64,000 nucleotides of DNA from an uncultured virus (IMG/VR IMGVR_UViG_3300024272_000044) (Duplodnaviria > Heunggongvirae > Uroviricota > Caudoviricetes): IMG/VR virus record IMGVR_UViG_3300024272_000044. One strand, given 5' to 3'. The notes below the pieces were generated by a model, which made no database searches, was not told the origin of the DNA, and saw only the letters and a program-made list of their open reading frames with translations. A program made the translations under genes and the position numbers. The stretch's first letter is position 1. Each line of letters starts with the position of its first letter. Shown here piece after piece: positions 5,830 through 33,770 of the stretch.

Positions 5830-8748
5830 TTAATCGCTACTGATTTTTTTATTTTTTAAATATGCACGTTTATTCTGCTTTGCTTTAAGCATTTTCTTAT
5901 ATTCGTAATCACAAGTTTCACATCTACAAGTTTTTAAATGCTTCTTATCGTTTTCAACTTCTATCCATTCTCCACAATCAACACATTTAATTGCTTTTGT
6001 TTTTGGTTTGCAATTATTATTTATTAAATTATCAACTATATATTTACCATAGCAAAACCAAAGCACACTCTTATGGCTACTAGGTTTAATATGATATAAT
6101 AATTTAACTAAAATATCTGTTACTTCCAAATCAGAATATCCAAACTGAGAAAGCTCATATCTAATTTCATTTGCAATCTTCTTAAAGAACAAATCTTGTT
6201 TTAATTGTGTATTATTTAATAATTCACCCCTTATCATATCTGCACATTCCATATTAACTTTAAAATGATATTTATTATTTAATTCAAAATATTTAACAAT
6301 CATTGGGTCAGACAACTCATCATTAACTGTTCCATTTTTATTAAATGCAATTTTACATTCCACATCTGGATTACTTACTAATTTTTTATAATCAATATTA
6401 CCAAGTTTATTACCATCATATCCTTTTAAGTTTCTACAATTAATTCTTGGATTTTTGATTTTAGTTTCAAGTTTATTTACAAAGCTTTCATTTGCATCTT
6501 CAACCTGAGAATCACCCTTATCCTTTGCATATACGAAAAAGTGTGGCACATTATCTTTTGTAAAATTAATAATCTCTTCATGAACAGAATCTGGTCTTTC
6601 TGGTTTATATAATGTTTTTGCATAGTCAATAACAAAGTTGTTCTCCATGCACAATAACTTAACTAAATTTATTGCTCTTTGTTTCTCTTCTTCTGTTCCA
6701 CTAATAAAAACATCACTATTCCAAATTTTAGAAATATTATTACTATAAATCCCAATATTGCCACCAACAAAAGCTGCATTTAATCCATTATAAATGGTCT
6801 GATTATTTAATTGAATAGGAGAAGCTTTTTTCATATTGTAATATAGTGGCACAATGCCTTTCATATTTCTTTCTGCTACATCAACTATACTTTTATCAGC
6901 TACTACTAAACTCTTATCTCCATCAACGTCAAACTGAAGAATCTTACTAATTAAATCATGACAGCTTGTATAAATAGCATCTGTTCCAAACCATTCACGA
7001 ATTTGCTGTTGACGTTCTTTATATTTATTACAAGCAATATTTGTTCTAATTGCATGTTCTTTATATAAATGAGGACTTCTTAAACAATCCAGCTTATCGT
7101 CTTTTTTAAACAGCCAGCAAAAAACTTCTCCATCGTCTAATAATCCTTTTGGATTTTCAATTCCCATAAACCAATGTTCACAAGCCGCATACAAGTCTGG
7201 GAGTATAAATGTATATTTTCCTTTTATTGCTAAACTACCAGACCTATATCTTTTTACCAAGCTATCTTTTATTTCTCTTAAAGTGATTTTCATATATTCA
7301 TCATTTAATAATGACGGATACAAATTAATAGCTTGTTGCAAATATGTCATATTATCATTATATGGAGTAATGCCAAATGCTCTTTTAATACCATTAAGAG
7401 TTTTTAAATCGTCTAAGTTATTTTTAGACTTCTCAATAATATTGTCTATTTCTTCATCTGTAATATCAGTAAGTGTTTGAAGCATTTGATAATTAATTGT
7501 TGCATCCTTAATCTTATCTTCTTCCATATTGGTATATCCAGCAGAGCAACCATACTTCTTATAATATCCCTTGTACTGTTCCCAAGAATCATAATACTTA
7601 CACATCTTAAACTGAGACTTTGTAAATATAATCTGAATATCTTCTGCTATTACATCATGTTCAACACCATATATGTCTTTAATTATTGGAGAACAATTAT
7701 TTTCTTTAATAAATTTCAAATAATCAAAAGAACCAAGCAATCCTTTTACCCAAGGAAGACGAACCATTCTGTTCTTGCCCATACATGGCAACATCATACC
7801 AGCACCATCTGTATGTTCAATTGGTACATAATCAGATATACGTTTAATAGAATAATCAACATCATCTACCAAATCATAAGTTCCAAATACGTCAGTTGCA
7901 AAATCATTTACCACAATCGTCTTATCAATATCAAACTCTTTCCAAACATCTGTAGCTGAGTTTGTTAAAGCCATATACGCTAAATGCTTATTTGGATTAT
8001 TACCACCTTTTTCATTAATAGAATCAATTGTAAGTCCACACATAATTGTCTTCTCATATTTTTTCCAAACAGATTCTTTTACGAATACTGTTTTCTTTGT
8101 TCTAATCTGACCAGCAGAAGATGTAAAGTAAATATATTTTTCTCCCTTATATGTAAATCCATGATAAATTAAGTCCTTAATAATATCAAAGTAATATACC
8201 TGCACAACCATAAAATCTTCTGTTAATTCATCCTGCTTTGCTCCAATCATTCTTGTAAAAGCAGAATCAAATACAGATATAATTTTATTATTATTAAATG
8301 GTTCATTTGCAAATTTAAGAATATCTCCTTTTGAACCAGATGGATTTAAATTTCTTAATTCTCTAATATGATGTTTTCCATTTGTAGATATGTTTGCTTC
8401 AATTTTATTTGATAATAAATCTAATAATCTATCTTTTGATTCTTTTATTTTCTTATTCTTTAGTTTCACTAATTCTCTCACTCTACAATAATCCATTCCA
8501 AGAGTAAGCAAAGTATGTTTATCTTCTCCCCAAGAACTATAATCATAATCTTTATTTGCAATTAGTTCTAAATCATTTTTATCAATTCCATATTTAGAAA
8601 ACTCATTTATAATTTCATTTTCTTTTTTCTTTAATTCATTTCTTTCAATTCTAAGCTTATGATTAAACCAATGAAGGTAAGCTTCTTTATTACTATAGAA
8701 GTTTCCAGTATCAACACTTAGAATCTGAACCTGAACATCCAAGCTCAT
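5830..8748 (-). CDS. YonO-like single-subunit double-psi-barrel RNA polymerase
   Basis: 972 aa; catalytic FDVDGD, TDGAG, RLPWVKG and RSPH motifs; C-terminal Zn finger; SPbeta-like synteny. Confidence 0.9.
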   Translation of the reverse strand: MSLDVQVQILSVDTGNFYSNKEAYLHWFNHKLRIERNELKKKENEIINEFSKYGIDKNDLELIANKDYDYSSWGEDKHTLLTLGMDYCRVRELVKLKNKKIKESKDRLLDLLSNKIEANISTNGKHHIRELRNLNPSGSKGDILKFANEPFNNNKIISVFDSAFTRMIGAKQDELTEDFMVVQVYYFDIIKDLIYHGFTYKGEKYIYFTSSAGQIRTKKTVFVKESVWKKYEKTIMCGLTIDSINEKGGNNPNKHLAYMALTNSATDVWKEFDIDKTIVVNDFATDVFGTYDLVDDVDYSIKRISDYVPIEHTDGAGMMLPCMGKNRMVRLPWVKGLLGSFDYLKFIKENNCSPIIKDIYGVEHDVIAEDIQIIFTKSQFKMCKYYDSWEQYKGYYKKYGCSAGYTNMEEDKIKDATINYQMLQTLTDITDEEIDNIIEKSKNNLDDLKTLNGIKRAFGITPYNDNMTYLQQAINLYPSLLNDEYMKITLREIKDSLVKRYRSGSLAIKGKYTFILPDLYAACEHWFMGIENPKGLLDDGEVFCWLFKKDDKLDCLRSPHLYKEHAIRTNIACNKYKERQQQIREWFGTDAIYTSCHDLISKILQFDVDGDKSLVVADKSIVDVAERNMKGIVPLYYNMKKASPIQLNNQTIYNGLNAAFVGGNIGIYSNNISKIWNSDVFISGTEEEKQRAINLVKLLCMENNFVIDYAKTLYKPERPDSVHEEIINFTKDNVPHFFVYAKDKGDSQVEDANESFVNKLETKIKNPRINCRNLKGYDGNKLGNIDYKKLVSNPDVECKIAFNKNGTVNDELSDPMIVKYFELNNKYHFKVNMECADMIRGELLNNTQLKQDLFFKKIANEIRYELSQFGYSDLEVTDILVKLLYHIKPSSHKSVLWFCYGKYIVDNLINNNCKPKTKAIKCVDCGEWIEVENDKKHLKTCRCETCDYEYKKMLKAKQNKRAYLKNKKISSD

Positions 8749-10121: not shown

Positions 10122-10150
10122 ATTATACACCATTTTCTGTAAATTGTCAA
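10122..10150 (-). promoter_or_regulatory. sigmaA-type promoter for the HTH/RNAP operon
   Basis: TTGACA-17-TATAAT on the minus strand. Confidence 0.85.
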
Positions 10151-10505: not shown

Positions 10506-10692
10506 CATTCTCCCCCACGCGGCTCGCCCCTCCGACTTTTAATTGTAAACCACCCCCACCCCACGCAAAAACTTGCAAGTTTCCAGAAAAATAAAGAATT
10601 TAAAAACTTTCTATTGACGTAGAGAAATTTTTATGATGTATTAGCCTCAGAAAACAACAAAACACTTTTTCAAATCAAGGAGGAACAAAACT

Positions 10693-12599: not shown

Positions 12600-13350
12600 A
12601 TACTTTACGTTTAACGGAAAGTTTTTAAACTAATCTTTGCGTTTAACGGAAAATTTTTAAAACGTCAGGATGCAATTATTTTTTCTATCGTATACGTATA
12701 TATACAACGTACTATATAACGTGCTACAACGTACTATATAACGTGCGATAAACGGAAGATTTGACGTTATATCGTAGGCTTGCATGGAAAATCTTTGGGC
12801 TTGCGTAAACACGCTTTAAACACGCTTTAAAAACGCTTTAAACACGCTTTAAATATATCATTATATATTTATATCTATATAATACATATCATAGCTTAAA
12901 ACGGAAAATAAACACATTATAAGCAATAATATAATAAGCAGAATAAACCAATGGAATCTAACGGAATAAATCAATGGAATCTAACGGAATAAATTAACTT
13001 AATCTTTGCACCTAACGGAAAATTTAAACAAACACTTTTGGCGAATAGGAAAATTAGTCGCCTGCTGCCACTTGCCAAAAAAATGCAATTTTTAAAAACT
13101 TTACATTTTTATTATTGACTGCTGCCAATATGGATAAAACCTGTCGTCAGTCTGGATAAAATTTATTCAAGCCAAAAAAATCGAATTTTTAAAAACTTTA
13201 AAATAATATTTATATTATACATAATTACAACTGGAAAATATGTAAAACAAAAAAATATATTTTTTAAAAACTTATTTGTCAATCACACGGAAGATATATG
13301 AATAAATGTTTTTAAACATTAGGAATAATTGTGATAAAGTTTTTAAACAT
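12600..13350. repeat. Non-coding region of short tandem repeats
   Basis: 2x TACAACGTACTATATAACGTGC (~12703), 4x AAACACGCTTT-like (~12807), 2x GAATAAAYCAATGGAATCTAACG (~12941), many ACGGAA. Confidence 0.85.
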
Positions 13351-13564
13351 TTGGAATAACTATTTTTCTATCGCTCGGAATATTCCAAAAAAATTCAATT
13401 TTTAAAAACTTTACATTTTAAACTTTCCAATTTCTAAACTTTCGGTGGCTCGGAAAATTTGAATAAATTTAAACAAATTTAAATAAAATACTTGACATAA
13501 TACTTTTTATCATGTATAATAAAGACAGTTAAAACAATACAACACACATACGGAGGATTTTATT

Positions 13565-13726
13565 ATGAAGAAATGGCACATTTATTTTAAAAAAGAAAAC
13601 GGAGAATCATTTGATGAATATATTGAAGCAATGTTCTTTGAAGATGCTGTAAACATTGCAGATGCAAGAGAAGATGCAGAAATAGACGTGGAAAAAACAG
13701 TAACTGCATTTTTCAAGGAAAATTAA
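13565..13726 (+). CDS. Small acidic hypothetical protein (53 aa; absent from ORF track)
   Basis: Own promoter, GGAGG RBS and terminator. Confidence 0.8.
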   Translation: MKKWHIYFKKENGESFDEYIEAMFFEDAVNIADAREDAEIDVEKTVTAFFKEN

Positions 13727-13982
13727 GAAGGTCACAAGACCTTCTTTTTTTATTTAATTTGTCACGCCAAAAAAATGGAATTTTTAAAAACTTTAAAATA
13801 CTGAAACGGTCACGCCAAAAAAATGGAATTTTTGAAAACTTTACTTTAATGTAAAAACCACCTGTGAAAATAAAATTGAAAAGATTTAATGAAACTACTT
13901 GACAACGTATGTATCATTTGATATACTATAAATAGCTCAAGAGGGCAATACAACAACATATTACTTAAGGAGGGTCAATATT

Positions 13983-14240
13983 ATGACTAGAATATCACTT
14001 CACATTTTACACAGTAAACCTAATACACAGTACTCAAATAAAGATGAGTATATCTCAACAGTATACTTTAGCGATGAGAAGAGACCATTTTACGAAACAA
14101 TGGCACTTTACTCAGACGGAACTGAAATTGAATACATGAGAGCAACAACATTGTATGATGCTCGTATGAATCATTACAGTATGATTCGCAAAAGACAAGA
14201 AGCTAACAGCTTTAGTGGTCTATTAGAATCCGTATTTTAA
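13983..14240 (+). CDS. Hypothetical early protein
   Basis: Promoter, AAGGAGG RBS, terminator. Confidence 0.8.
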   Translation: MTRISLHILHSKPNTQYSNKDEYISTVYFSDEKRPFYETMALYSDGTEIEYMRATTLYDARMNHYSMIRKRQEANSFSGLLESVF

Positions 14241-14676
14241 AACATATGGAACACGTTGGAAACAACGTGTTCTTTTTTTATTGCTATTTTTTATATTTCT
14301 TTTCATGCCAAAAAAATCGAATTTTTAAAAACTTTACATTTTTAAAATCTAAAAAAATCAAATCCAAAAAAGTTGAATATTTAAAAACTTTAAATGTGTA
14401 AAAACGGTCAATCCAAAAAAAATCAAATATTTAAAAACTTTAACATGTATACGCGTTTTTCCAAAATTTCTCATTTTTTAAAAACTAATAGTGTCCTGCT
14501 GCCTGCTGCCAAAAAAATTAAATATTTAAAAACTTTACTATTTAATCGCTGTACACTCCAGTTAATTCCAGTCAGAAAAAATAAAAAATATTTAAAAAAC
14601 TACTTGACATTATATTAAACATGTGGTAACATAATATTAACAACAAACGAAGCATATATTTAAAGGAGAAAACATT

Positions 14677-14862
14677 ATGAAAACATTATTAAGCAAAGAA
14701 GATAAAAGAAAGATTAAACTTATTAAAAAATATGCAAAGATTCGTTTCAGAAGATTTTGGAATGAATGGGGTATTTCAAAAGAAGAAGCACTCGACTTCG
14801 TTGGAGCACTTTCAATCTTTGTAATGTTATTTGCATTATACATTATAGGATGCATGTTTTAA
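14677..14862 (+). CDS. Small membrane protein
   Basis: Promoter, RBS, terminator; C-terminal hydrophobic helix. Confidence 0.75.
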   Translation: MKTLLSKEDKRKIKLIKKYAKIRFRRFWNEWGISKEEALDFVGALSIFVMLFALYIIGCMF

Positions 14863-15153
14863 GGAGCTGAAAAGCTCCTTTTTTATTTCTCTTAAAATCT
14901 TTCTTTTATTTTTTTATATGCCAAAAAAATCGAATTTTTAAAAACTTTAACTTTATGCCACATCCTGTTTTCATAATCCAAAAAAATTAAATATTTAAAA
15001 ACTTTACGTTTATGCGTCTGGCGTGTCAAAAAAATGAATTTTTAAAAACTTTAACAGCAGAAAAAAATAACAAATTTATCCAAAACTACTTGACAATATA
15101 TCTTTTATGTGATAATATATAATCAACAAGAAACAACGCACGGAGGTACAAAC

Positions 15154-15534
15154 ATGAACGTATTAGTTAAAATGAAGGGAATTGAAAAAGATTATTTATT
15201 CTTAACATTAGAGGAAAATGGTAAAAAAGAATATTATTTAAATAATTGCGAGGTAGACAAAGATAGTGGAAACAAAACGTATTTAGAAACTATCAAAAAA
15301 ACAGACAGAGTCAGAGAAGTAGTTAAAATTACAGAAGACAACAAAAAGGATGTAATGGAATACTTCTTAAGGGGTTATGATAAATATGTACAGTATATTG
15401 ACGATTATAGCCAGTACAGACAACAGCAAAGACATAATGATATGGTTTATACATATATTAAACTCATTGATAAATGTGTAAAGACAAAAAACGAAGATGA
15501 AATCAAAGAGCTTTATGATAAATATGTGTGGTAG
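15154..15534 (+). CDS. Hypothetical early protein
   Basis: GGAGGT RBS before ATG 15154; own promoter and terminator. Confidence 0.8.
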   Translation: MNVLVKMKGIEKDYLFLTLEENGKKEYYLNNCEVDKDSGNKTYLETIKKTDRVREVVKITEDNKKDVMEYFLRGYDKYVQYIDDYSQYRQQQRHNDMVYTYIKLIDKCVKTKNEDEIKELYDKYVW

Positions 15535-15841
15535 TCGCCACACATATTTTTTTGCCTGTCTAATCCAAAAAAATCCAATTTTTAAAAACTTTAAACCGTT
15601 GTTTTATCTGGCATCCTGCTGCCAACTTTTTTAAATATTTAAAAACTTTATTTAACTAAAACGGTTGAGTCAAAAAAATCGATTTTTAAAAACTTTAAAA
15701 TAATAACAACGACAACAACCGTGTGTCACCAGCTAAAAAATAATTTAAACAAATTTCATTTTACTACTTGACAAATAGTTATATATGCATTATAATAAAG
15801 ACAGATAAAACAAATAACACATTTCAAAAGGAGAGAACATC

Positions 15842-16099
15842 ATGAGAACTTACGAACTTAAACCAAACAACAGACAGAAATCATTCTACGGAAAAGCAAC
15901 AGTAATTGAAAAAGACAATGGCGACATTGAATTAAAGAGTTACAACACAATCGTTGCTAGAGTGCATGAGGGACGATTTGAACGACTTTGGGATGATTAC
16001 AGTGCAACTACAATGAAACACATTAACGCTTTTATTGATATGTTAGGAATTAACGGAGGAGGTAAGGCTTGGTGGTGTAGCTTAGAAGTAGCACACTAA
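15842..16099 (+). CDS. Hypothetical early protein
   Basis: Promoter, RBS, terminator. Confidence 0.8.
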   Translation: MRTYELKPNNRQKSFYGKATVIEKDNGDIELKSYNTIVARVHEGRFERLWDDYSATTMKHINAFIDMLGINGGGKAWWCSLEVAH

Positions 16100-16494
16100 C
16101 AAACAAGGTTATATAGGAAGAGTTGAGAAATCAACTCTTCTTTTTTTGTTTAGTTTAAAACCAGATTTGCATAATCCAAAAAAATCCAATTTTTAAAAAC
16201 TTTAACTTATTATTTTATCTGGTATCCTGCTGCCAAAAATTTTCAATTTTTAAAAACTTTAGAGTGCCATTCCTGTCTGGCAACCTGCTGCCAAAAAAAT
16301 TGATTTTTTAAAAACTTTAAATGTATACGCGTTTTTCCAAAATTTCTCAATATTTAAAAACTATAACACCAGAGTCACAGGTGGACGACTGGAGAAATAT
16401 TTTAAACAAATTTAATAAAACTACTTGACAATATAAATAATTAGCGTTATAATGTATATATAATAACAAAGCAAAAAGAAAAGGAGAGCTTAAC

Positions 16495-16869
16495 ATGAGA
16501 GCAATAGTATTAGAAAACGGAATCTTAAAAGAAAAAGAAATTGAAAACAGTTTAGAAACTATGCAAGAAATAGTTGGTGGATGGATTGAAAGAGCATATA
16601 TGTGCGAAAGATTCATACAAGAAAGAATTGACCCAATTATAAATGAAGAGGGTAAGTTAATTGGACTTGAACCTCAAGTTGCAGTACTAGACAGAGATGG
16701 AAACAGAGTATTAGATTTAATCATGGGTAATTGCGTATTTGTAAGTCATGATGATGAGGGAAACACAATTGGATTGACCGACAGACAAATAAACATAGTC
16801 CGTGAGGAACTCGGAAGGGAAGTATTTATACCAAACATGATGTTATTAGTAAAGGCGGTGCTAGTATAA
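16495..16869 (+). CDS. DUF3846-like protein
   Basis: LETMQEIVGGWIE...NEEGKL...IMGNCVF pattern. Confidence 0.7.
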   Translation: MRAIVLENGILKEKEIENSLETMQEIVGGWIERAYMCERFIQERIDPIINEEGKLIGLEPQVAVLDRDGNRVLDLIMGNCVFVSHDDEGNTIGLTDRQINIVREELGREVFIPNMMLLVKAVLV

Positions 16870-17164
16870 AACAAGAGCGGTGGAGAAATCTACCGCTCTT
16901 TTTCATTGTCCGACATCCTGCTGCCATAATCCAAAAAAATGTAATTTTTAAAAACTTTAGAATCCTGCTGCCAGCTGGACAGTTTTTATCAATTTTTAAA
17001 AACTTGTCCAGCCTGCTGCCACCTCGCCAAAAAAATGCAATTTTTAAAAACTTTACATTTTTTTAGCTCAGGAAAAGTTTGTTAAAAAATATAAAATACT
17101 ACTTGACAAATAGAAGAATATGCGTTATAATTAACTTAAATAAAACAAGTAAGGAGCGATTACT

Positions 17165-17428
17165 ATGAAAGACAAAGAAAGATTTATGATATACGTTAAA
17201 ATAGCTGAAAGAGCAGAGGAGCTTGGAATCTATCACGGAGAACGGTTAACACTTATAATGGATATTGAAAGTGCAGATAAGTATTTTAACATGCGATTAG
17301 AAGATTGGTTGAACGCAGATAACTTTAACTTTGCACACGACCTTGTAGGAATTGTTAACCACGTTGACAGAAGCAGTTATCCAGCTGTGGAGTTTAATAG
17401 ATTTTTACCACGATTTGCTGGAAAGTAA
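17165..17428 (+). CDS. Hypothetical protein (DUF6874-like)
   Basis: MDIE...L.AD.FNFAHD..GI..H.DR...FLPRF pattern. Confidence 0.6.
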   Translation: MKDKERFMIYVKIAERAEELGIYHGERLTLIMDIESADKYFNMRLEDWLNADNFNFAHDLVGIVNHVDRSSYPAVEFNRFLPRFAGK

Positions 17429-17482
17429 AAATAATTAAAAAATATACTTGACAAATTAACTAATTTATAGTATAATTATATT

Positions 17483-17601
17483 AGATAAAAAACAACGGAA
17501 TACGTTCTCTTTTCTTTTAGTAGTGTTGTTGTTGTTGTTGATGTGTTGAAAATATATATCCGTTGTTTTTTGAGGGCTGAAAAATCAGCCCTCTTTTTTT
17601 T
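17483..17601 (+). ncRNA. Promoter-driven small RNA with anti-SD and (GUU)n loop
   Basis: TTGACA(17448)-17-TATAAT(17471); no ORF; 13-bp stem 17487-17499/17559-17571; terminator 17572-17601. Confidence 0.75.
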
Positions 17602-17999
17602 ATGTTTAGTCATAATCTTTTCAAATCCAAAAAAATCGAATTTTTAAAAACTTTACTATTTTATCAAACCCAGAATCCTGCTGCCAATTTTTTTCAATTT
17701 TTAAAAACTTTATCCTGCTGCCGTCTGGTGACAAAAAAATCGAATTTTTAAAAACTTTACCTTTTTAATTTTTCTGGCAACCTGCTGCCAATTTTTTTCA
17801 ATTTTTAAAAACTTTAAAGTTATATATAATTGTCATCCTGCTGCCAGAAAAATTAAATATTTAAAAACTTTATTAAGCTATGATAAAAAATTATTTTAAA
17901 TTATTTTAAATTAGTAGTTGACAAGTAGTTGCTTATGTGGTATACTAAAGACAGTTGGAAAACAAATAATAAAACTTAATAAAGAAAAGGAGATTCATT

Positions 18000-18257
18000 A
18001 TGAACAACAACGCAGTTATTATTAACAACATTAGTGAAGCAAAAGAAGGAATGGAAATTATGTTCTTTGTAGGTTTCCATGATTCATTAGACGGTTTTGG
18101 AATTGCTAGAATCAAGAGTATATCAGATAATGATATAACAATTTCCGTTCGTGGAGATTTCGATGAGTGGAGTGATGATTGGGTAAAAAGCCATGAGGAG
18201 TTCAATGGAGATTTAGATTATTTAAAATTTGCATTAAACAATTTAAAAACTGCATAA
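18000..18257 (+). CDS. Hypothetical early protein
   Basis: Promoter, RBS, terminator. Confidence 0.8.
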   Translation: MNNNAVIINNISEAKEGMEIMFFVGFHDSLDGFGIARIKSISDNDITISVRGDFDEWSDDWVKSHEEFNGDLDYLKFALNNLKTA

Positions 18258-18557
18258 TAAAATGATGGGCGATGACGTAAGTTATCGCCCTTATTTTATT
18301 CTCTTAAAAGTTGTCTTTTATTTTTTAAAATCCAAAAAAATTCAATTTTTAAAAACTTTAAAAGCCTGCTGCCTGCTGCCAATTTTTTTAAATATTTAAA
18401 AACTATATTTTAACAACTACAACAACCGTGTGTCGTCACCGTCACCAGTCAAAAAATAATTTAAAGTATTTTAAATAAACTACTTGACAAATAGCAAGCT
18501 ATGGTGTATCATTATATTAACAAATAAAACAACTCAATAAGTAAAGGAGAACTTAAT

Positions 18558-18803
18558 ATGTACGCAGTAGGATTTATTAACTTAGGAAGTTTAGGAATGC
18601 AGAATCCAATGGGAAACAATGGTTTACAAAAACTCAGAAATAAGACCATGAGAGGCTGGAAGAGTGAGTTAAGCACAATGAGTAAATGTGTAGATGAAAT
18701 CTTAATAGTAAATGATTTTACACAAGAAATGTGTGAAATGAATCAAGCAAAATTATATGACTATTGTTGTAAACACAAAATAGTAAGAATGCCAAAGAGC
18801 TAG
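18558..18803 (+). CDS. Hypothetical early protein
   Basis: Promoter, RBS, terminator. Confidence 0.8.
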   Translation: MYAVGFINLGSLGMQNPMGNNGLQKLRNKTMRGWKSELSTMSKCVDEILIVNDFTQEMCEMNQAKLYDYCCKHKIVRMPKS

Positions 18804-19134
18804 AGAAATCTAGCTCATTTTTTTATTCTCTTAAAATGTTTATTTTATTTTTTCAATCCAAAAAAATTAAATTTTTAAAAACTTTAATTGACTGCTGCCA
18901 CTTGCCAGCGATAAACAGCTGGCAAGCCAAAAAAGTTGAATTTTTAAAAACTTTAATCGCCTGCTGCCTGCTGCCAAAAATTTTCAATTTTTAAAAACTT
19001 TAAACCGTTGTTCTACTCAGGCTGGCGACAGGTACGGCAAAAAAGTTTAAATAATTTTATAAAACTACTTGACAAGTTATTAAATGTGGTGTATACTTAG
19101 TATATAAACAACAGAATATATGGAGGGCTTAGTT

Positions 19135-19443
19135 ATGATGAACTACAACACAATGACTAACGATGAAATCAGAAGCGAGATGAGAAGACTTGGCGACATG
19201 TTAGAACTAATGAATCCTTGCGATAATGATTGGGATGCTACATATAAGAAGTACTTCTTTTTAAGCTCAATCATGGATGAGAGATACCGAGAAGAGAATC
19301 AAGAACAGTTTGATGCGTTCTATGAAAAGAACATTAAGGGCAAGAGCTGGAATGAGATTGATGATGAAACTTGGGGATTCTACTCAGACTGGCACAAGGA
19401 CATGTTCGGTTATAGACCACGTTCAAAAGAGAGAGACTGGTAA
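19135..19443 (+). CDS. Hypothetical early protein
   Basis: GGAGG RBS; C-terminal YSDWHKDMFGYRPR; promoter and terminator. Confidence 0.8.
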   Translation: MMNYNTMTNDEIRSEMRRLGDMLELMNPCDNDWDATYKKYFFLSSIMDERYREENQEQFDAFYEKNIKGKSWNEIDDETWGFYSDWHKDMFGYRPRSKERDW

Positions 19444-19690
19444 ACAGTCTCTTTTTTTTGTGCTTTTATATTTTATTTTTATCTAGCCAAAAAAATTGAA
19501 TTTTTAAAAACTTTACAATTTTATTTAATACAGCTAAATCCAAAAAAGTTGAATTTTTAAAAACTTTGGTTTTAATTTTTATAAAAAATATTTAAAAAAA
19601 TAAATCAAACTACTTGACAAATAGCAACTAACATGATACAATATATTTAACAAGTGAACAGAGTATATTTTTAAATAGGAGATTTGAGCT

Positions 19691-19828
19691 ATGACATGGA
19701 GTGAATATTTTGATTTAGAAGTATCTAGAGGGGCAAAACCAGAGTTGGCACAGAACTCTATTGGTCGTATGATGGACTTATACGAATCATGGGACTGGGA
19801 TGCAGAAGTCCCTTTTGAGGTTAAATAA
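19691..19828 (+). CDS. Small hypothetical protein (45 aa; absent from ORF track)
   Basis: Promoter, AGGAG RBS, terminator. Confidence 0.7.
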   Translation: MTWSEYFDLEVSRGAKPELAQNSIGRMMDLYESWDWDAEVPFEVK

Positions 19829-20168
19829 AATTAGGAGGAGCAGTCCTCCTTTTTTTATTGGATTTTTTATCCAAAAAAATTAAATTTTTAAAAACTTTAA
19901 ACCGTTATTCCAGCATAGCCAAAAAAATGCAATTTTTAAAAACTTTACTTTGTTAATGCCAGACTGCTGCCTGCTGCCAATTTTTTTAAATATTTAAAAA
20001 CTTTACTAATTAAAAAATCTAATTTTTAAAAACTTTATATATACTTATAGAAAAAATCAATCAATTTAATTTAAAAAAATATAAAATTCTACTTGACAAA
20101 TAGCTTGTTATCCTTTACAATAGTATTAACCTAATAAAACAACTTAATAAAGAAAAGAGGTAAAAACT

Positions 20169-20486
20169 ATGAAAAAAATTACTTGGAATGAAATGATTGA
20201 AGCAATGTGGAAATTCAACGAAGAACACGGCTACAAAACAAAAGGCAATGAAAAGCGATTAACTGGAGTTGTAGTATTTACAGAGAATAGTTTTACAGCA
20301 CCATATACAGAGCTAGAACGCAGTTATGAATTTACCAGTGACCAAAAAGCATTCTTACCAAACCAGTCAAGCAATTCTATTTTTGCAGATTGTTTAGATG
20401 GAACAGATTTAGGGGTGAGACTTGATTGGTATATGCATGGAGTAGACGGTTGGAAAGTTGATTATTGTTATCTATTGAATGAATAA
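20169..20486 (+). CDS. Hypothetical early protein
   Basis: Promoter, GAGGT RBS, terminator. Confidence 0.8.
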   Translation: MKKITWNEMIEAMWKFNEEHGYKTKGNEKRLTGVVVFTENSFTAPYTELERSYEFTSDQKAFLPNQSSNSIFADCLDGTDLGVRLDWYMHGVDGWKVDYCYLLNE

Positions 20487-21336
20487 AAATGAGGGCTGAG
20501 AAATCAGCCCTTATTTTTTATTTTCTGGAGCGTGCCAAAAAAGTTAAATTTTTAAAAACTTTAAACCGTTGTATCTGGTACAGCTCCAGCGTCCAAAAAA
20601 GTTGAATTTTTAAAAACTTTAAACCATTCTCCCAGACGGCAACCAGCAATCCAAAAAAATCCAATTTTTAAAAACTTTACTTTAATATACGGTTGCGACC
20701 TGCTGGGACAAAAAAGTCCAATTTTTAAAAACTTTAGTTTGTTGTATCTGGCAGGCGACCAGCATCCAATTTTTTCGAATTTTTAAAAACTTTAGCTTTA
20801 TGTTTCCAGAATATAGACTGTGCCAAATTTTTCTAATTTTTAAAAACTTTACTTATATGTTTGCTGGTTCTGGTAGTCCAAAAAAATCCAATTTTTAAAA
20901 ACTTTACTTATATGTACGTTAAAAAATTTTCTATAAAACTACTTGACAAATTATTAAAAATATGTTATAATAGACAAAAAAACCTATTTTTAAAAAACTT
21001 TAACCAACTAAATTGTTTGAATTGTTTAAATTGTTTAAACTATTTTAATTATTTTGAATTGTTTTAATTATATAAAATAATTGCACAATACCTACAATAA
21101 TAATGATTACTATTATAACATGATAATAATTACTATTATAATAATTATTAAATTATAACAGATTAAATTATGACCGATTAAATTATGACCTATTAAATTA
21201 TGACCTATAATTATATGATAATTATTATTAAATAATTATAATTAAATTTAAAATAGTAGTTGACAAGTGGTTTTTTATAGTGTATAATTAGCTTAACAAA
21301 TAAAACAAAGCATCTTAGAAAAGAGAGGTATTTATT

Positions 21337-21933
21337 ATGATGACAATTAGTGTATCAAAAGGAAATGTAAAAATGGGCGAAATTAAAAGTGTATCTTTAC
21401 CACCAATCGTAACATGTGCGAGCGGTTGCACTTGTGCTAAAAAGTGCTACGCAAAAAGAATGTGTAGATACAAAAACGTGCGAGATTCTTATAATAGAAA
21501 TCTTGAACTCTACATGAATAACCCAGTTGAATATTGGAATCAGGTATCTGACGCAATGTGTACAAGCCGATTCTTCAGAATGCACGTAGCTGGCGACATT
21601 CCTTGTTATGAATATCTTGTAGATATGGTAGACGTAGCAAAAATGAATCCACATTGTGACATCTTAGTATTTACAAAAAGATACCATTTTGTTAATACAT
21701 ATATCAATAATGGTGGAAGCATTCCAACTAACTTACATCTTATCTTTTCAGAATGGGAAGGTATGACAATGGAAAACCCACATAATATTCCAGTTGCACA
21801 CGTTATCTTTAAAGGTTGCGAACCTAAAGAAAACTGGAACATCTGTACTGGAAACTGTTTAGAATGTGCAAAGAAGAATGTGAACTGTTGGAGCTTAAAG
21901 AATGGCGAACACGTAGCATTCCACGAACACTAA
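21337..21933 (+). CDS. GP88-like Cys-rich (Fe-S/radical-SAM-like) phage protein
   Basis: GNVKMG...SLP...TC...CAKKCYA, FRMHVAGD and CTGNCLEC patterns. Confidence 0.65.
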   Translation: MMTISVSKGNVKMGEIKSVSLPPIVTCASGCTCAKKCYAKRMCRYKNVRDSYNRNLELYMNNPVEYWNQVSDAMCTSRFFRMHVAGDIPCYEYLVDMVDVAKMNPHCDILVFTKRYHFVNTYINNGGSIPTNLHLIFSEWEGMTMENPHNIPVAHVIFKGCEPKENWNICTGNCLECAKKNVNCWSLKNGEHVAFHEH

Positions 21934-22477
21934 ACAAATAAGGTTATAAGACTAGGCGAAAAGCCTAGTCTTTTTTTGTGCTGTAACATCCACAGGTACA
22001 AACCAAAAAAGTTGAATTTTTAAAAACTTTACTTTGTCATATCTGGCAATCCAAAAAAGTTGAATTTTTAAAAACTTTATCTTGTTGATTTATCTTGATT
22101 TATCAATCCAAAAATATTGAATTTTTAAAAACTTTATTTATATAGGACTGTCATCCAAAAAATCCTAATTTTTAAAAACTTTACTTGTATGCTCCAGAAC
22201 GCACAGAAAAATGGAATATTTAAAAACTTTACATCTATGCCAGTTGGAAGATTTTATGCAATGTGAATGTGATATAACATAAAAATATCAAATTCACAAA
22301 CTAGAACATACGTTCATAAACTACACGGAAGATACACGGAAGATACACGGAAGATACACGGAAAAAATAATTTAAAAAGTTTTAAATAAATACTTGACAA
22401 GTAGATATATAGGTGGTATAATAAAGACAGTTAAAAGAACAGTATAAACAAAGCACCAATGCTAGGAGGAAAATTTT

Positions 22478-22753
22478 ATGATGACTACTATTGAACTAAT
22501 GAAAAAGATTGAAGAACTCAAAGAACTTGAAGCAATCGTAAAAGAAGCCGAGGAAGAAATCGAAGCTATCAAAGATGAAATCAAAGCAGAAATGCAGAGC
22601 AAAGAAGAAATGAAATGTGGAAGATACTGTATTAAATACAAAAATGTATCTAGTAACAGATTTGACACTACAACATTTAAAACGGCTTGTCCTGACATTT
22701 ACAAATTGTATGTTAAACAGACAGTAAGCAGAAGATTTACTATTACTGGATAA
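22478..22753 (+). CDS. Hypothetical coiled-coil protein
   Basis: Promoter, AGGAG RBS, terminator. Confidence 0.75.
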   Translation: MMTTIELMKKIEELKELEAIVKEAEEEIEAIKDEIKAEMQSKEEMKCGRYCIKYKNVSSNRFDTTTFKTACPDIYKLYVKQTVSRRFTITG

Positions 22754-23088
22754 CATATAAGGTTATAGGATTATAACCCCATACAACTGAATACTGGAAC
22801 TCAAAAGGGAGTGGAGAAAATCCACTCTCTTTTTTGTGCCTTGACTGGAGGCGACTGGAAAATCAGAAAAATGGAATTTTTAAAAACTTTACTGGAGTGA
22901 TTTGACTGGACAGAAAAATGGAATTTTTAAAAACTTTAGTTTGGTGTGGCGACTGGAGAAGCGACTGGAAAAGCGACTGGAAACAGAAAAATCTATTTTT
23001 TAAAAACTTTAACTTTGTGCTTTGACTGAACTTTGGGCGACTGGAAGATTTGGGAATTGAACTGGAGAAACTGGAGGAACTGGCAGAT

Positions 23089-23146
23089 TGTGGATAACTT
23101 TGCAGATTGTGGATAATGTGGAAAACTATGTGGAAAATGTGGATAA
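23089..23146 (-). promoter_or_regulatory. Cluster of five co-oriented DnaA boxes
   Basis: TGTGGATAA (reverse complement of TTATCCACA) at 23089, 23108, 23138; TGTGGAAAA at 23117, 23129. Confidence 0.8.
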
Positions 23147-23209
23147 CTTTTACTTGCGACACGAGTTGAGAAACTTTTTTGTATCTAGTGGAGCGATATA
23201 AAAGAAAAA

Positions 23210-23495
23210 CATCCCCCACTCTACACCCAAAAACACCCCAAAATCGACCCTCTTCTCCCACTACACCCTCACTACACCCCCACTACACCCCCACCACTCT
23301 CCCACTTACCACTAAAAATCCCTACTTTTAAAGCATTCTATCCCCACTCCACAACCCACATTCAACCACATTCATCCCCCACTTTGACCCCAAAAATCCC
23401 TAATTTTTAAAAACTTTCTCCCACTTTAAACACCAAAATCAGAAAAAATCAGTATTTAAAAACCACCTTAAAACCACCTTAAAACCACCAAAAAT
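23210..23495 (+). other. C/A-rich strand-asymmetric tract with short tandem repeats
   Basis: 3x CACTACACCC, 2x ACCACATTCA-like, ~3x AAAACCACCTT; almost no G on the plus strand. Confidence 0.8.
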
Positions 23496-23686
23496 CAAAC
23501 AACGAATAAACAAAATAAAATGCAACGGAAAATATCGAAAACCACCACGGAAAAAATAAAAATAATACAAAAAATCGACAACGGAAAATCAATAAAAAAA
23601 TAAAAAAACTTTCACTTTACTACTTGACAAGCTACTAAACATGATGTATAATGTAATCAGAAAACAACAAAGAAAGGAGAAAAAAT

Positions 23687-24682
23687 ATGGATATTGAAAA
23701 CAAAATCAAACGTATGGAAGATAGAATCAACTATCTAATCAGAAGTGCAGAAAGATATTTTAACAAATGTGGATGGGATAAAACATATGATGTTAGAATT
23801 GCACGGATTGAATCGAGTATAGATATGCTCGCAATCTTGACGGAAAAAGAATACTCATATAATGAAAACGGATTATACGAAGTATAGGAGGACGAAAAAT
23901 GGTATATATCGTACATTATACTTGTCCACATTGCAAGAACGCAAAATGTGGTGATAACCCAATGAAAAGAGCAAACGAACTCATTGTTGCAGACAGTAGG
24001 ACAGAAGCAAAAAATATTTTTAATCGCTACAAACAATGCAGATACATGAAGATTTGCGAAATTAAAGAAACAACATTATAGACGGAGGATTTTAATTATG
24101 ACAGTAAGAGATATTTTAAATATGTTTATTGATGGAGATGACCAGTATTTTGAATTATGGGATGTAGACAAAGAAGAAGTTGTATATAGTGGATATTTAT
24201 TTGATTTAAGTGATGAACTGGAATATGCAACAGTAACAAGTATTGATAACGTATATGGAGATATGAAAGGAATTACACTTAACATTGATATGGAAATCTA
24301 AGGAGGACGGAAAAATGAGTAATCCAACTACAAAATATACAAAAAGAGTACACTTTATTGGAAGTGGATATGAAAGTATTAAATATCTTATAGTGGATGG
24401 AGAAATGCCAAACTGTGAAGCATTTGAATTTGCAGAAGAATGGTATAAATCAACTGGACAAACATTTGAGTATATGGATATGGAAATAAGCCTATAAGGA
24501 GGACGGAAAAAATGAAGAAAGTAATTATTATAGCCATATGTATCTTATCGCTAATGTTCGCAGAATATCGTTTTATAATGGCTCATATCAAACCATACAT
24601 AGTAGAACGTGGAACAGTATATCTTGAAATCTTTGGACATATAGATGAATACTACGCAGAATCTTGGGACTTAGGAAACTAA
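23687..24682 (+). CDS. Operon of five small hypothetical proteins (23687-23887, 23899-24081, 24098-24301, 24315-24497, 24512-24682)
   Basis: Promoter 23624, GGAG(G) RBS before each, terminator ~24669. Confidence 0.75.
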
Positions 24683-24849
24683 GTCCTATATTTTTTGCAA
24701 TCAAAAATCTTTAATTTTTAAAAACTTTAAATGCTAACGCAGACGGAAAAAATTTAAAAAATATATCATTAACTACTTGACAAACTATCATTATGATGAT
24801 ACAATATACTCAAAGATACAACAATATAAGCCAAAGGAGAATGTGTGCT

Positions 24850-25038
24850 ATGAAACTAAAACTAACAGAAAAGCAAATACACAATAGACTAGACAAATAC
24901 TATAAGAAGTACTATGGGGAAGAATATACAGATGAATGGTATATAAATCCTAACCAGTATACATGGAAATTTGAACGTGATGGAAAAACTATCACTCTTA
25001 TTTATGATGAAAAAACTGGAAAGGTATACGAACCATAA
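24850..25038 (+). CDS. Hypothetical protein
   Basis: Promoter 24777, AAGGAG RBS; start 24841 or 24850. Confidence 0.7.
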   Translation: MKLKLTEKQIHNRLDKYYKKYYGEEYTDEWYINPNQYTWKFERDGKTITLIYDEKTGKVYEP

Positions 25039-25048
25039 AAGCACAGAG

Positions 25049-25185
25049 AGTTAAATGTGTGACGTAGTCACTAGTATTCTTATATGTATGGTATTCTTAT
25101 ATGTTTGAACGGAAAAATTACATACATTTTGTACGGTGGTCAACGCAGTTTTTGACACTAGCACCGTACATTTTGTACGGTGGTC
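25049..25185. repeat. Right copy of ~140-bp inverted repeat
   Basis: Palindrome CACCGTACATTTTGTACGGTG at 25162-25182; reverse complement matches 9893-10033. Confidence 0.9.
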
Positions 25186-25304
25186 ATGCTGATTAAGTGG
25201 AAAATTTTTTAAGTAAATATATAAAAAATGCTTGACAAGTAGCAAATCACATGATATACTATAATCAACAACAAGAACAATATATACATGAAAGGAGAAC
25301 TAAT

Positions 25305-28300
25305 ATGGCTACAAAACACTACACATACGAAAGAAACAAACGAGAACAGCTCATTAATGATTTAGGAGAAAGCCACATCATTGATGGTTTTGTAGTGGAT
25401 AATAAACACAAGAATGGTCTTGAAGTACATAGTATTACAGACAATGGAGTTATTATCATTCACAACTTAAATTCTGGAGAATTGGTTACAAAGTTAATTG
25501 CTAGACCACATCAGATAGAACGATATTATGAAGCTACTGGAAGAGAAAAGCCAGTTGAATATGATAATGTTATAAGGTCAGCAAAATGGCATCATATTTT
25601 AGGTTTTAACAATTATTAAAAGGAGAATATAACAATGACAAGAAAAGAATTAGAGAGAGCAAAAAAGAGTTTACCAAAATGGGAGAATGGAAAACCTCCA
25701 GTATATACATATGAACAGAAAGTACTAAGAGATAAAGTATATTGTATTGATATGATTAATTCAATCTTGATTTACAATGGAACAAAAGATGTGCTTGACA
25801 ACTATTATTTAAAAGACCACATCAGAGAACTTGGATTAAAAACTGTTGCAGAACTTGTAATCGAACAAGTGGAAGATTTTAGCAAGGCTACAATTTATAG
25901 AAACGTGCATACAGATAATGAGGGATTATCTTATCACTCTATTGTATGGGCAGATGAAAGGAATGAAATGTAATGAGAGTTTGGGTATGTGTATATCGTG
26001 ATACAATAAAGCAACATGATGATGATTGGAATTTAACAGATGTATTAGTTGAAAGGGATTTCTTTGAACAGTATTTTAACGAACTTAAAACGGATGATTG
26101 GGATGATTTTGAAGAGTTTTTAAAAGAATACTGTGCTGATGATACACAAGATTTTTATAACTATGCAATGAAACATAACGCGATACTGGATAAAGTAAAC
26201 TGGTAATTCATGGGTTGAGAATTTTTTCTCAACCTTTTTTATTTTGTGCTAATCAAACAATAGAAGTTTTTAAAAATTAACTTTTTTTGTTCATGATGGA
26301 CAATTTTATTCAATTTTTAAAAACTTTAATTCGCTGCTGAAAGAAAAATAATTATAGGAAAATAATAAATAGTAGTTGACAAGTAGTTGTGGTGGTGGTA
26401 TAATAAAGACAAATAAAGAAAGGGAGTGCTTATCATGGCAAAAGAAATTAATAGAGTATCATTTGAAATTGAACATTGTAATGGAGATACATACTTTGGT
26501 TTTATGTTATCTATTAAAGATGACGGAAGTGTAGAAGTTATTAAAACAACAGATTGTAGCTTGGCAGACGTAGATGGAGATTATATCTTTGGAACTGACA
26601 ATTCATTATATAGAGTGCAAGCTGATGAACCAATATCAGAATACACATATGATGAAATTAAAAATTGTTTGGAATAATTTTACAAAAACTATTGACAAGT
26701 AGTTATTATAGTAGTATAATGAAATCAAGATAAAGGAAACAACACATGGAGGTAACAATTATGACACGAGAAAAATTTTTAAAGGGAATGATGACAACTG
26801 TAACAGTATTCACAATCTTCTGTTGGATGTTGCTGATTGCATTTTTAATCATGGCAATCTGTGGAAACCCAATTCCAGTAGTTGATACAATTGTATTATT
26901 TGTATTAGAAGTATTTATTAGCATATCAATCTACAAATATTACACAGAATACAGATACGATTTATAAGGAGGATATTTCAATGACTGCAAAAGAATTAGA
27001 TACAATGGTAAATGCAATGCGAAGCAAATATCATAAAGTAAATACTAGAGTAGATGTTACAAATGAAATAGCACATCTGTATAAAGGTCTGGAAGCAATT
27101 GGAAGATATGAAATTGCAAACAAAATACTAGATTTATGTATGGAAATAGATAGTATTGATACAGATGAAATTGTAAGAATTGGAACTTTTAATAAGAGAT
27201 AAATATATAGGAGGACTAATTATGAGATTATATTGGGATTATGTATGGTTTGGAAAAAATGAATATTATAAAGTGCTTTGCTTAGAAACAAAGAATAATG
27301 ATTGGGCATTGTTTAAATTAAGAGTGGGAGAAAATGAATTTGTTGAATATATTAAAAATTGGATTGAACCAAAAGATTTTTTAGAATATGTAAACAATTA
27401 AAAAGTTTCATTGAAATATGAAAAACTACTTGACAAACGATTAAACCTAATGTATAATATAATTAAAGATAAGGAACAAATAAAGTTATAAAAAAGGAGA
27501 ACTAGATATGAGTAGAGTTGATAACATTAAAAATTTTGCAAACAAAAGAGAAGCTGAATTAACACGAGAAAAAGAACGGTCTTTAAATAAGATTGAGGAA
27601 TATAAGGCTCACATCAAAACATTAAAGCCTAGAATTGATGAATTACTTGAAGTAGGAAATGCGTGTTTAGAACATGGTATTCCTTTAACTGGTAGCAGAT
27701 GGGGTGGTCATGAGGGATATGATACACATCAGTTTATTTCAAACAGTTGGTCACACTTAGTTGGATTTATAAGCGAGGGAAAGAATAAACCATTTTCTAG
27801 AGTTGGGAAAATTGGTGGTGGTGCTTGTGATTGGAATTTAATAACGGATGGTGTAAACATTGATGTTACTGGAAGTGTTGAGAGTGTGCTGAGATATTTT
27901 ATAGAAGATTTTGATGAATTTGAAACTGAATTTTATAAATATGTAGATAGTATTACAAATAAATAATAGTTTGGAGGTATTAAACATGACATTACATACA
28001 AATTTAGAAAAAGTAAAAGTTGGAGATAGAGAAAATTTACTTTGTGTATTAAGAAATATCGCAGACTTTGATATGGATTTTAATGGAGATAATGGAGAAG
28101 ATTATACTTGGGAAGAAGCATTGGAAAATGGTTTTGAAAGCAACTTAGAATATGTTCTTAATATCATAGAAGATATTGAAAATGATGAAGAGTGTGTAAA
28201 AGCATTTTTTGAAGAGTGGATGGAAAACGATGGATATTATACAGAATACGAAGTGAATTGTCTAACAGATACGAAAGGCAGAGTAACTGCAATTGGTTTC

Positions 28301-30726: not shown

Positions 30727-30912
30727 ATGTGTGAATATAGCAAGAGAGATGTAAAACGGATTCTTAAAAAGAATGGTTGGAAGTTACATCATTGCAAAGG
30801 AAGTCATGAGATTTATAGAAATGACAAGAATGAACATTTATCTATTGTTCCTAGCAGATGTAATAGACTAATCATGGAGAGATTAATGAAACAGTATAAT
30901 ATGGTTGTTTAG
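30727..30912 (+). CDS. HicA-family mRNA interferase-like protein
   Basis: LKKNGW...KGSH.IY...VP pattern, 61 aa. Confidence 0.8.
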   Translation: MCEYSKRDVKRILKKNGWKLHHCKGSHEIYRNDKNEHLSIVPSRCNRLIMERLMKQYNMVV

Positions 30913-31145: not shown

Positions 31146-31207
31146 CGAATTACTACTTGACAAATAAATAAATATAGTATATAATATAATAAAGGAGGTT
31201 GATATTT

Positions 31208-31672
31208 ATGTTATATGTAGCTTATGGAAGTAATATGAATTTAAAACAAATGGCTTTTAGATGTCCAAAATCTAAGGTTATAGGAACTGGTAAGTTGTTA
31301 GGATGGAAATTAGTATTTAATTGTCATGCTGATATTATTAGTGGTGATGACTATGACGAAGTACCAGTTGTTGTATGGGATATTGATGATGACGATTGGG
31401 CTAGACTTGATATGTACGAAGGGTATCCAAACTATTACGTAAAAGAGTTTGTGAATGTTTTAATGGATGATGGAGCAAAAGAAAAAGCAATTGTATATGT
31501 AATGGCAGACAATAGAAAAGGAATCTGTCCACCAGAAGATAGTTATTTTGATGGAATTATCAAAGGTTGTATTAGCAATAGGATTGATGCAGGATATTTA
31601 TATGATGCGTTAGAGTATTCATATGCAAATAAAACAATGTATAATCAGTATACAACTAGGGAGATGGTTTAG
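31208..31672 (+). CDS. Gamma-glutamylcyclotransferase family protein
   Basis: YVAYGSNMN..QM..RCP and LDMYEGYP motifs. Confidence 0.9.
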   Translation: MLYVAYGSNMNLKQMAFRCPKSKVIGTGKLLGWKLVFNCHADIISGDDYDEVPVVVWDIDDDDWARLDMYEGYPNYYVKEFVNVLMDDGAKEKAIVYVMADNRKGICPPEDSYFDGIIKGCISNRIDAGYLYDALEYSYANKTMYNQYTTREMV

Positions 31673-32070: not shown

Positions 32071-32293
32071 TCTCCGTGCTTTTTCTTTGTGTATATATAT
32101 AAAGTTTTTAAAAATTAGATTTTTTTGGATTTGTTGTACAATTTTTTTGAATTTTTAAAAACTTTACATATATGATTCGAAAAAATAATTTAAAAAATAT
32201 TATAAAAATAGCTTGACAAGTAGTCATTATAGTAGTATAATGAATATAGATAAAAGATAACGATAACATATTTAAAGGAAAGGATTGAATGTT

Positions 32294-33531: not shown

Positions 33532-33770
33532 GCTTCAACTTTTTTATTTACAAAGAAACAAAAGTTATTTCTAAAGAAACAAAAAAGTTTATTTTTTAAA
33601 AACTTTAAATAGATATATTTCGCAGCAGAAAAATTTAATTTTTAAAAACTTTAAATAGATGTTAATAAAAAAGTTTCGTTAAATATATAAAATTATCTTG
33701 ACAAGTAGATTTATACATGATATAATAAGTTATAGATAAAAATAAGACAACAAGAAAAGAGGTAATAATT

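Follow-up and report, generated by a model that had tools for sequence, protein, structure and literature searches.

A conserved small RNA gene of an SPbeta-like phage and its predicted antisense pairing with the leaders of the phage's own early genes

A promoter-to-terminator unit at 17448-17601 of the 64,000-nucleotide stretch of viral DNA analysed here (the window) is, judged by comparison with related phages, very probably a genuine and conserved phage sRNA gene. Its predicted product displays a loop that mirrors the leader shared by the phage's early genes, and on balance it is likely to act in trans as a multi-target antisense sRNA, damping the mRNAs of early cassettes in the same phage. 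This multi-target reading had already been proposed from the letters of the DNA, and it is now supported by compensatory stem changes in homologs and by preferential, SD-covering and collinear pairing with the early leaders. What exceeds chance appears to be this class-wide, in-register pairing, rather than any single match, and two items on which the sequence-only reading had drawn, an exact match at one site and a repeated terminator, are weaker evidence than it had implied.

The RNA unit and the early-cassette array

The window is part of a 153,181-base virus record of an SPbeta-like phage (it has a YonO-type polymerase) that encodes terminase and eight tRNAs. The polymerase shares 44% identity with SPbeta YonO and 49.5% with a Clostridium phage D-1873 protein, and from the kinship of the polymerase relatives we infer a host in the phylum Bacillota. 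The late genes of SPbeta itself are transcribed by YonO, according to the available portion of PMC5467207. The genome also encodes a serine recombinase of 542 aa and has two genes of tyrosine-recombinase fold, which suggests that the phage is temperate; SPbeta has SprA and MrpR (available text of PMC10516654). Recombinase-type genes were noted at G000:C1:37106-37384 (plus strand), 92748-93305 (minus strand) and 140909-141460 (plus strand), with tyrosine-recombinase-fold frames of 266 and 345 aa; one recombinase-fold gene might be an MrpR-like repressor.

The RNA unit stands in an array of ~25 early cassettes of the kind read by the host polymerase, each with its own near-consensus sigma70 promoter and a short A/C-rich leader, where the label 'early' is assigned by promoters and position and the timing is deduced from them. 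The leaders are unstructured and present ACA/CAAC tracts followed by a AAAGAAAAGGAG-type SD; ACA occurs 1.77 times per 35 nt in the early leaders versus 0.46 and 0.57 in controls, that is, three to four times more often. The array and the parts of the unit are as follows.

5830-8748, minus strand: YonO-type single-chain RNA polymerase gene (972 aa; PF05183), divergent from the early array; context only
13492-34284, plus strand: early cassette array, made up of promoter, A/C-rich leader, small ORF and usually a terminator, together with repeats
17165-17428, plus strand: cassette gene upstream of the RNA (87 aa, DUF6874), which ends 19 bp 5' of the RNA promoter with no intervening terminator
17448-17476, plus strand: sigma70/sigmaA-type promoter (TTGACA at 17448-17453, 17-bp spacer, TATAAT at 17471-17476), 12 of 12 consensus positions
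17483-17601, plus strand: predicted ~117-nt non-coding RNA, placed from promoter and terminator
17487-17499, plus strand: 5' arm of stem P1, whose sequence resembles the A/C-rich 5' beginnings of sibling leaders; assigned with covariation
17504-17518, plus strand: U/C-rich block (anti-RBS) that complements the AAAGAAAAGGAG-type SD region in early leaders
17520-17549, plus strand: G/U-rich block that contains (GUU)5 (17525-17539) and complements ACA/CAAC tracts 5' of the SD
17559-17571, plus strand: 3' arm of P1, also antisense to AAAACAAC-type leader 5' ends; by inspection and covariation
17572-17601, plus strand: intrinsic terminator, 9-bp hairpin (17572-17593) and T8, the sole terminator seen for the upstream gene 17165-17428

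The 5' end of the RNA was set 7 nt past the −10 box (~17483) and the 3' end within the U tract. As the sequence-only reading had claimed, a consensus promoter and a terminator frame a segment that has no plus-strand ORF of 40 aa or more, and a 13-bp stem, P1 (17487-17499 with 17559-17571), presents a loop, here 59 nt long (17500-17558). The unit therefore has the general marks of an sRNA gene, namely its own promoter, an intrinsic terminator and no coding capacity. Its promoter is of the same class as those of the early cassettes; among the 34 consensus promoters found genome-wide, it is one of three with no ribosome site inside 90 nt. The computed fold of the unit is more stable than expected (z = −4.15; none of 200 shuffles was equally stable, terminator included), and the anti-RBS block is mostly unpaired in the fold ensemble. 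Read backwards, the loop resembles an idealised cassette leader, with CAA repeats and then a AAAAGAAAAGAGAAC block, and an origin of the RNA as an inverted leader copy is plausible.

Several other features of the array were recorded. A ~35-bp repeat (CCAAAAAAAT..AATTTTTAAAAACTTT), often accompanied by CCTGCTGCC, lies between early cassettes in at least 46 copies (window 13038-26340) and may provide protein-binding or recombination sites for cassette shuffling. Most cassette promoters (13492-34213) carry an imperfect palindrome, CTACTTG-A-CAAGTAG, centred on the −35 box with 9-14 of 15 matches, a candidate operator for a phage repressor. At 20943-21259 (plus strand) a perfect promoter is found with no ribosome site or gene and with AT-rich short tandem repeats after it, possibly an emptied cassette or an origin-like region. 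On the minus strand, a consensus promoter at 10150 faces a 157-codon ORF region, a 298-aa gene and the polymerase; its leader is long and A/C-rich and lacks a ribosome site over its first 90 nt. Early cassettes at 30727-30912, 31208-31672, 32294-33151 and 21337-21933 give matches to HicA-like, gamma-glutamyl cyclotransferase-like, ArdC anti-restriction plus zincin domain, and GP88 proteins.

Homologs and conserved structure

Seven distinct members of the RNA family were collected, with pairwise identities of 54-78%, the six homologs being 54-64% identical to the window RNA; two further virus records are identical to the window across the RNA region. L007 and L008 were found by synteny with the upstream DUF6874 gene (2 of 29 non-identical loci), and L091, L173, L175 and L179 by pattern scans, where L173 is nearly a copy of L007 and L091 is the same as G003. 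A loose pattern scan of viral contigs returned at least 116 stretches, and among the matches listed the window, L007, L008 and L091 types passed the architecture filter. The metagenome scan gave nine stretches, three of them members (L173, L175, L179), the anti-RBS/(GTT)n pattern gave 19, of which only two copies identical to the window passed the filter, and a pattern scan of genome contigs gave four, all of them coding starts.

A covariance model (R1) built from L007, L008, L175 and L179, with the window RNA excluded, gives the window RNA a score of 73 bits (E 4.5e-11). Applied to 45 records with related polymerases, R1 returned one new member, G012 (95 bits), together with G003 (33 bits), and the remaining matches look like terminators by length and score. 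Among 19 additional early-region stretches no member besides G012 was found, nor was any found in 13 near-complete, more distant relatives, for which at most the best 76 candidates per record were scored with R1. The polymerases of members match that of the window at 79% (G002), 73% (G012) and 52-75% in pieces (G003); the G003 polymerase gene (G003:C1:46304-50562, minus strand) matches in three pieces, suggesting intron or homing-endonuclease insertions. INPHARED contains no record with the RNA and none with more than 1% of the early region. In Rfam searches, only the eight tRNAs reach the gathering score in the window, and no match over the RNA was obtained at E up to 5 in L003, L279 and L292.

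The structure itself is conserved. In a MAFFT alignment of four members, both sides have changed in 4 of 13 P1 pairs and 6 of 11 terminator pairs; in a six-member alignment, which omits G003 and L173 and is itself fitted to the model, the corresponding counts are 6 of 13 and 6 of 11, with 97% of cells paired, none of 500 shuffles matching this and slid controls at 32-50%. Conserved structure with covariation, in P1 and in the terminator, thus adds to the marks of the sRNA class given above. All seven members keep the promoter at the equivalent place and the loop order, U/C anti-RBS block first and G/U block second. The loop insertions of G002 and L179 fold as small self-contained hairpins and leave the antisense blocks intact. 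In the minimum-energy folds of G001, G002 and G003, alternative helices take in parts of the loop, and the anti-RBS block of G003 is partly paired.

These patterns bear on the idea that the unit is a non-functional relic, produced by an inverted leader copy and microsatellite slippage in an emptied cassette. Such a history would suit an array that is repeat-rich, reshuffled and host to an orphan gene-less promoter at 20943, and it draws on the same inverted copy that is plausible as the origin of the RNA. The compensatory P1 changes, the loop order kept across members 54-78% identical and the insertions that spare the antisense blocks all argue the other way, and a relic is highly unlikely.

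The homologs also address a pair of related proposals, in which the U/G-rich loop is a decoy for a host RNA-binding or defence protein, or the element is a stabilising 3' UTR of the upstream cassette. In six of the seven members the promoter lies 8-22 bp 3' of the upstream stop with no terminator between, so that the RNA element doubles as the 3' end of the upstream mRNA, and the (GUU)n tract is of low complexity and variable in copy number (L007 versus L173), as a decoy or 3' element might allow. Against this, the RNA's own promoter is kept in 7 of 7, the upstream gene is of three different kinds among members, and in G003 the RNA stands alone, a terminator-like hairpin preceding its promoter. 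We consider either role improbable.

Two candidates for coding or cis-acting function on the opposite strand were rejected. A conserved antisense peptide would have to come from a 45-codon minus-strand ORF (17476-17613), which lacks a ribosome site and has no equivalent in the other members. For a type I antitoxin or cis-antisense RNA, no conserved opposite-strand gene was found among the seven members: opposite-strand ORFs are absent from G001, G003 and G012 and unrelated elsewhere, and a promoter match is absent in 7 of 7.

Predicted pairing with the early leaders

The loop core pairs with 26 promoter-led early starts at a mean of −22.7 kcal/mol versus −15.3 kcal/mol for 181 other phage genes, the test windows on the 26 start regions taking in untranscribed bases 5' of short leaders. 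On the same 26 starts, dinucleotide-shuffled loops reach −19.5 ± 1.0 (none of 100 equals the real loop), a loop with its blocks swapped −20.3 and a reversed loop −19.0, and shuffled targets offered to the real loop give −18.1 ± 0.7 (none of 100 as good). Uncorrected pairing reaches −20 in 5 of 37 long polymerase-strand genes versus 16 of 26 early genes. When pairing is confined to its own transcribed leaders, the window RNA reaches −20.5 versus −18.5 ± 1.0 for shuffles, 2 of 60 of which equal it. This is the weakest case of the seven, and the window RNA bound the pooled family leaders (−23.1) better than its own. The six homologs, each on its own 8-13 leaders, reach −25.0 to −31.2, with 59 or 60 of 60 shuffles falling short. 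In 74 of 82 leaders the SD is spanned by the best duplex, versus 48-66 in 15 rounds with shuffled loops; this agreement in block order and SD coverage, beyond that of shuffles, further counts against a protein decoy or 3' element.

After correction for accessibility, pairing of −10 kcal/mol or better is predicted for 20 of 25 early leaders (the other five are poor targets), compared with 28 among 181 other genes of the phage and 37 among 263 proxy host genes, in a test whose early and control regions had different sequence contexts and whose proxy genes come from 400 kb of three MAGs, not from the phage's real host. Two of the 28 matches to other phage genes are cassettes overlooked by the promoter pattern. 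Weak matches include the leaders at 26411-26437 and 31192-31210. Many small early genes, most of them without a known function, are predicted targets; their leaders include the following.

25267-25307, plus strand: best predicted target leader, of a 104-aa gene (−27.2 kcal/mol with accessibility)
32248-32296, plus strand: predicted target leader of an ArdC-like anti-restriction gene (−19.2 kcal/mol)
16460-16497, plus strand: predicted target leader of a DUF3846 gene (−18.8 kcal/mol)
20128-20171, plus strand: gene 20169 leader, which contains the exact 11-nt match at 20149-20159 (−15.0 kcal/mol)

The last of these had been singled out in the sequence-only reading. The 11-nt match is real (AAAGAAAAGAG at 20149), and the further match site at 33752 was located (AAGAAAAGAG). 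However, the 153-kb genome contains 71 exact antisense matches of at least 10 nt to the loop (the RNA's own opposite strand counted), and the longest outside the RNA, 14 nt at 43628 and 12 nt at four places, all fall outside the early leaders, so that the 11-nt match is by itself unremarkable. The CAACAA tracts named as complements of (GUU)n are likewise present, at 10655, 13951, 23665 and 25266, but the plus strand of the window has 38 copies. The terminator core GAGGGCTGA/TCAGCCCT does recur at 20491/20504, where it is the ordinary terminator of gene 20169-20486 and lends the unit no particular significance.

Much of the affinity between loop and leaders is compositional, since shuffled loops still favour the early leaders by 3.3 kcal/mol. 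Co-variation of loop and leader from phage to phage was sought across the seven phages and none was found; in just 2 of the 7 phages does the anti-RBS block pair best with that phage's own leaders, and the top target gene varies, no one orthologous target ranking first in all phages. The complementarity thus appears to be to the leader shared by the clade, not to that of each individual phage, and pairing is not phage-specific.

A host-shutoff RNA had been the other function suggested from the sequence. An abundant anti-SD, G/U-rich RNA would lower host translation, the match to the leaders being a by-product of the look-alike quality of strong leaders. That 37 of 263 proxy host starts reach −10 kcal/mol, and that proxy host genes make up 11 of the top 30 targets, is compatible with such an action, for which PreS and VpdS, acting on host mRNAs, offer examples (available portions of 10.1101/2024.10.31.621285 and PMC12197685). 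The contrast with 20 of 25 early leaders nevertheless disfavours it, as do the accessibility-corrected means of −13.2 for early leaders versus −5.1 for the proxies from three MAGs, which are not the real host (p 4e-10). Furthermore, a host-directed RNA should spare the phage's strongest leaders, and those are its best matches. We regard a host-directed function as quite unlikely.

Proposed role, known systems and a second RNA

The preferred reading, that of an antisense RNA directed at the phage's early mRNAs, starts from a loop that is in its sequence a collinear mirror of the shared leader, its anti-SD block 5' and its (GUU)n tract 3', held open by P1. The RNA would be made together with its targets from the same class of promoter and would probably outlive the cassette mRNAs, and so accumulate, a greater stability being suggested by its paired 5' end and strong terminator. 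Pairing over the ACA enhancer and the SD would block 30S loading and probably speed up decay, the outcome being a pulse of early proteins and then shut-off while the YonO-type polymerase assumes late transcription. With duplexes of 20-40 nt, a chaperone is predicted to be unnecessary; the phage genome has no match to the Hfq family. Because the 3' arm of P1 is antisense to leader 5' ends, a target might also unzip P1 and so lengthen the duplex.

The same pairing could instead serve in the lysogen or against co-infecting relatives, silencing leaky prophage cassettes or early genes of relatives with the same leader. It would then provide immunity or exclusion at the RNA level and not a lytic timer. 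The 542-aa serine recombinase and the two tyrosine-recombinase-fold genes, with SprA and MrpR in SPbeta (PMC10516654, available text), are in keeping with this role, as is the pairing of members with the leaders of other family members as well as their own, and the c4 RNA of P1/P7 is a precedent for antisense immunity (PMC12197685, available portion). The RNA promoter, however, resembles its siblings: its agreement with the palindrome (9-13 of 15) does not fall consistently under the leader means of 9.2-12.8, so nothing suggests that it escapes repression, and the idea of an escaping promoter was not supported. A palindrome like that of its siblings fits co-expression and gives no independent timing. 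On this evidence a lysogen or exclusion role is unlikely, though less so than a host-directed one.

The early-mRNA reading can be set beside several known systems, each taken from the available portion of its source. The comparison with GcvB made in the sequence-only reading holds for mechanism and fails for family. In PMC3879156, an unstructured G/U-rich region of GcvB pairs with CA-rich elements at or near the RBS of many mRNAs, and ACA motifs are the translation enhancers that it silences; the RNA described here has, by computation, a similar unpaired G/U-rich region complementary to CA-rich RBS elements of many mRNAs, and the GcvB model of Rfam gives no match over it. GcvB is chromosomal, Hfq-associated and directed at amino-acid genes, whereas the RNA here is phage-encoded, has the phage's own early genes as predicted targets, and carries a dedicated anti-SD block, with both blocks in a stem-closed loop. 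The c4 RNA is closer in setting, being a phage RNA that acts in trans on phage mRNA around the RBS through sequences shown in loops (PMC12197685). It controls one antirepressor message, in immunity, in contrast to the ~20 separately transcribed targets predicted here, and the Rfam C4 model has no match over the RNA, whose pairing is not confined to its own phage.

In its proposed role the RNA resembles RegB and RegA of T4, which shut off many early mRNAs post-transcriptionally at SD or initiation regions; RegB is itself expressed early (available text of PMC3014915), as the RNA here would be a factor made from an early promoter. The RegB endoribonuclease and the RegA repressor are proteins, whereas the agent here would be a base-pairing RNA. 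PreS (lambda) and VpdS (VP882) are likewise phage-encoded multi-target sRNAs of temperate phages (10.1101/2024.10.31.621285, PMC12197685), but they depend on Hfq and their targets are mainly host mRNAs, or mRNAs of both host and phage, and in the available portions of those sources neither is described as matching the shared leader of an early regulon. AimX is a non-coding RNA from the same broad group, the SPbeta-group phages; it is AimR-dependent and promotes lysis, and its target is stated to be unknown in the available text of PMC10516654. By that description the RNA here is set apart, having a plain consensus promoter inside a cassette array, and its locus lacks the setting of AimX (arbitrium) downstream of aimR-aimP, the neighbours being DUF6874 and small unknown genes.

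The RNA would seem to be a trans-acting base-pairing sRNA whose class of targets we did not find described. The literature searched, which took in few subscription papers, yielded no account of this RNA or of any phage sRNA aimed at a leader common to early genes. For the candidate viral structured RNAs of PMC10690425, four of six supplements gave no match, and the remainder may list the RNA as an unnamed candidate.

To our knowledge, the post-transcriptional end of the phage early phase is known mainly from T4 proteins. If the proposal is true, an RNA-only off-switch for an entire early regulon does the job that T4 assigns to RegB and RegA, as a one-part timer for toxic takeover genes. In the available portions of the sources considered here, the phage sRNAs described so far target the host or a single phage message. 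An RNA that reads a shared leader on ~20 separately transcribed phage mRNAs would put a known mechanism to a new use. It is quite possible, and we suggest tentatively, that in phages with separately promoted early genes a common leader serves as both translation enhancer and address, mirrored by one RNA off-switch. The leader/anti-leader pair offers a direct test of ACA enhancers in Gram-positive hosts and a compact tool for multiplex translation control, and the proposal can be tested by reporters with no need for phage culture.

A second promoter-RNA-terminator unit, of ~140 nt, was noticed in the early region of a more distant SPbeta-like clade (polymerase 62-68% identical), in 9 of the 30 records searched.

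L302:9330-9510, plus strand: second RNA unit; also at L301:9053, L303:10850, L308:12003 and L316:10394, and in L337-L345

Its sequence is unrelated to that of the first RNA and has GGU-type tracts and an anti-SD segment; the leaders of its clade are richer in ACCA/AACC, complementary to GGU tracts. Rfam gave no match over the second RNA (searched in L337). First-family loops pair with first-family leaders at −22.4 to −24.5 versus −15.3 to −20.3 with leaders of the second clade, and second-family segments pair with the leaders of their own clade at −22.2 to −23.9 versus −19.6 to −20.5 with first-family leaders. The second family exceeds its own shuffles weakly (z −0.4 to −1.7), the five members tested being close kin, and the apparent mirroring by the second RNA of its clade's leader is a lead, not a result. 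As a second, unrelated RNA seems to mirror the different leader of its clade, the leader-mirroring strategy may have arisen more than once or may have tracked leader change.

In the relative G013 (L298:3400-8700, plus strand), early genes have long structured leaders and no sigma70 cassettes, a different design of the early region within the same group. L023, a distant phage carrying a DUF6874 gene, has on its minus strand at L023:3964 a promoter that leads into two hairpins and a U tract and lacks a ribosome site, possibly another small RNA.
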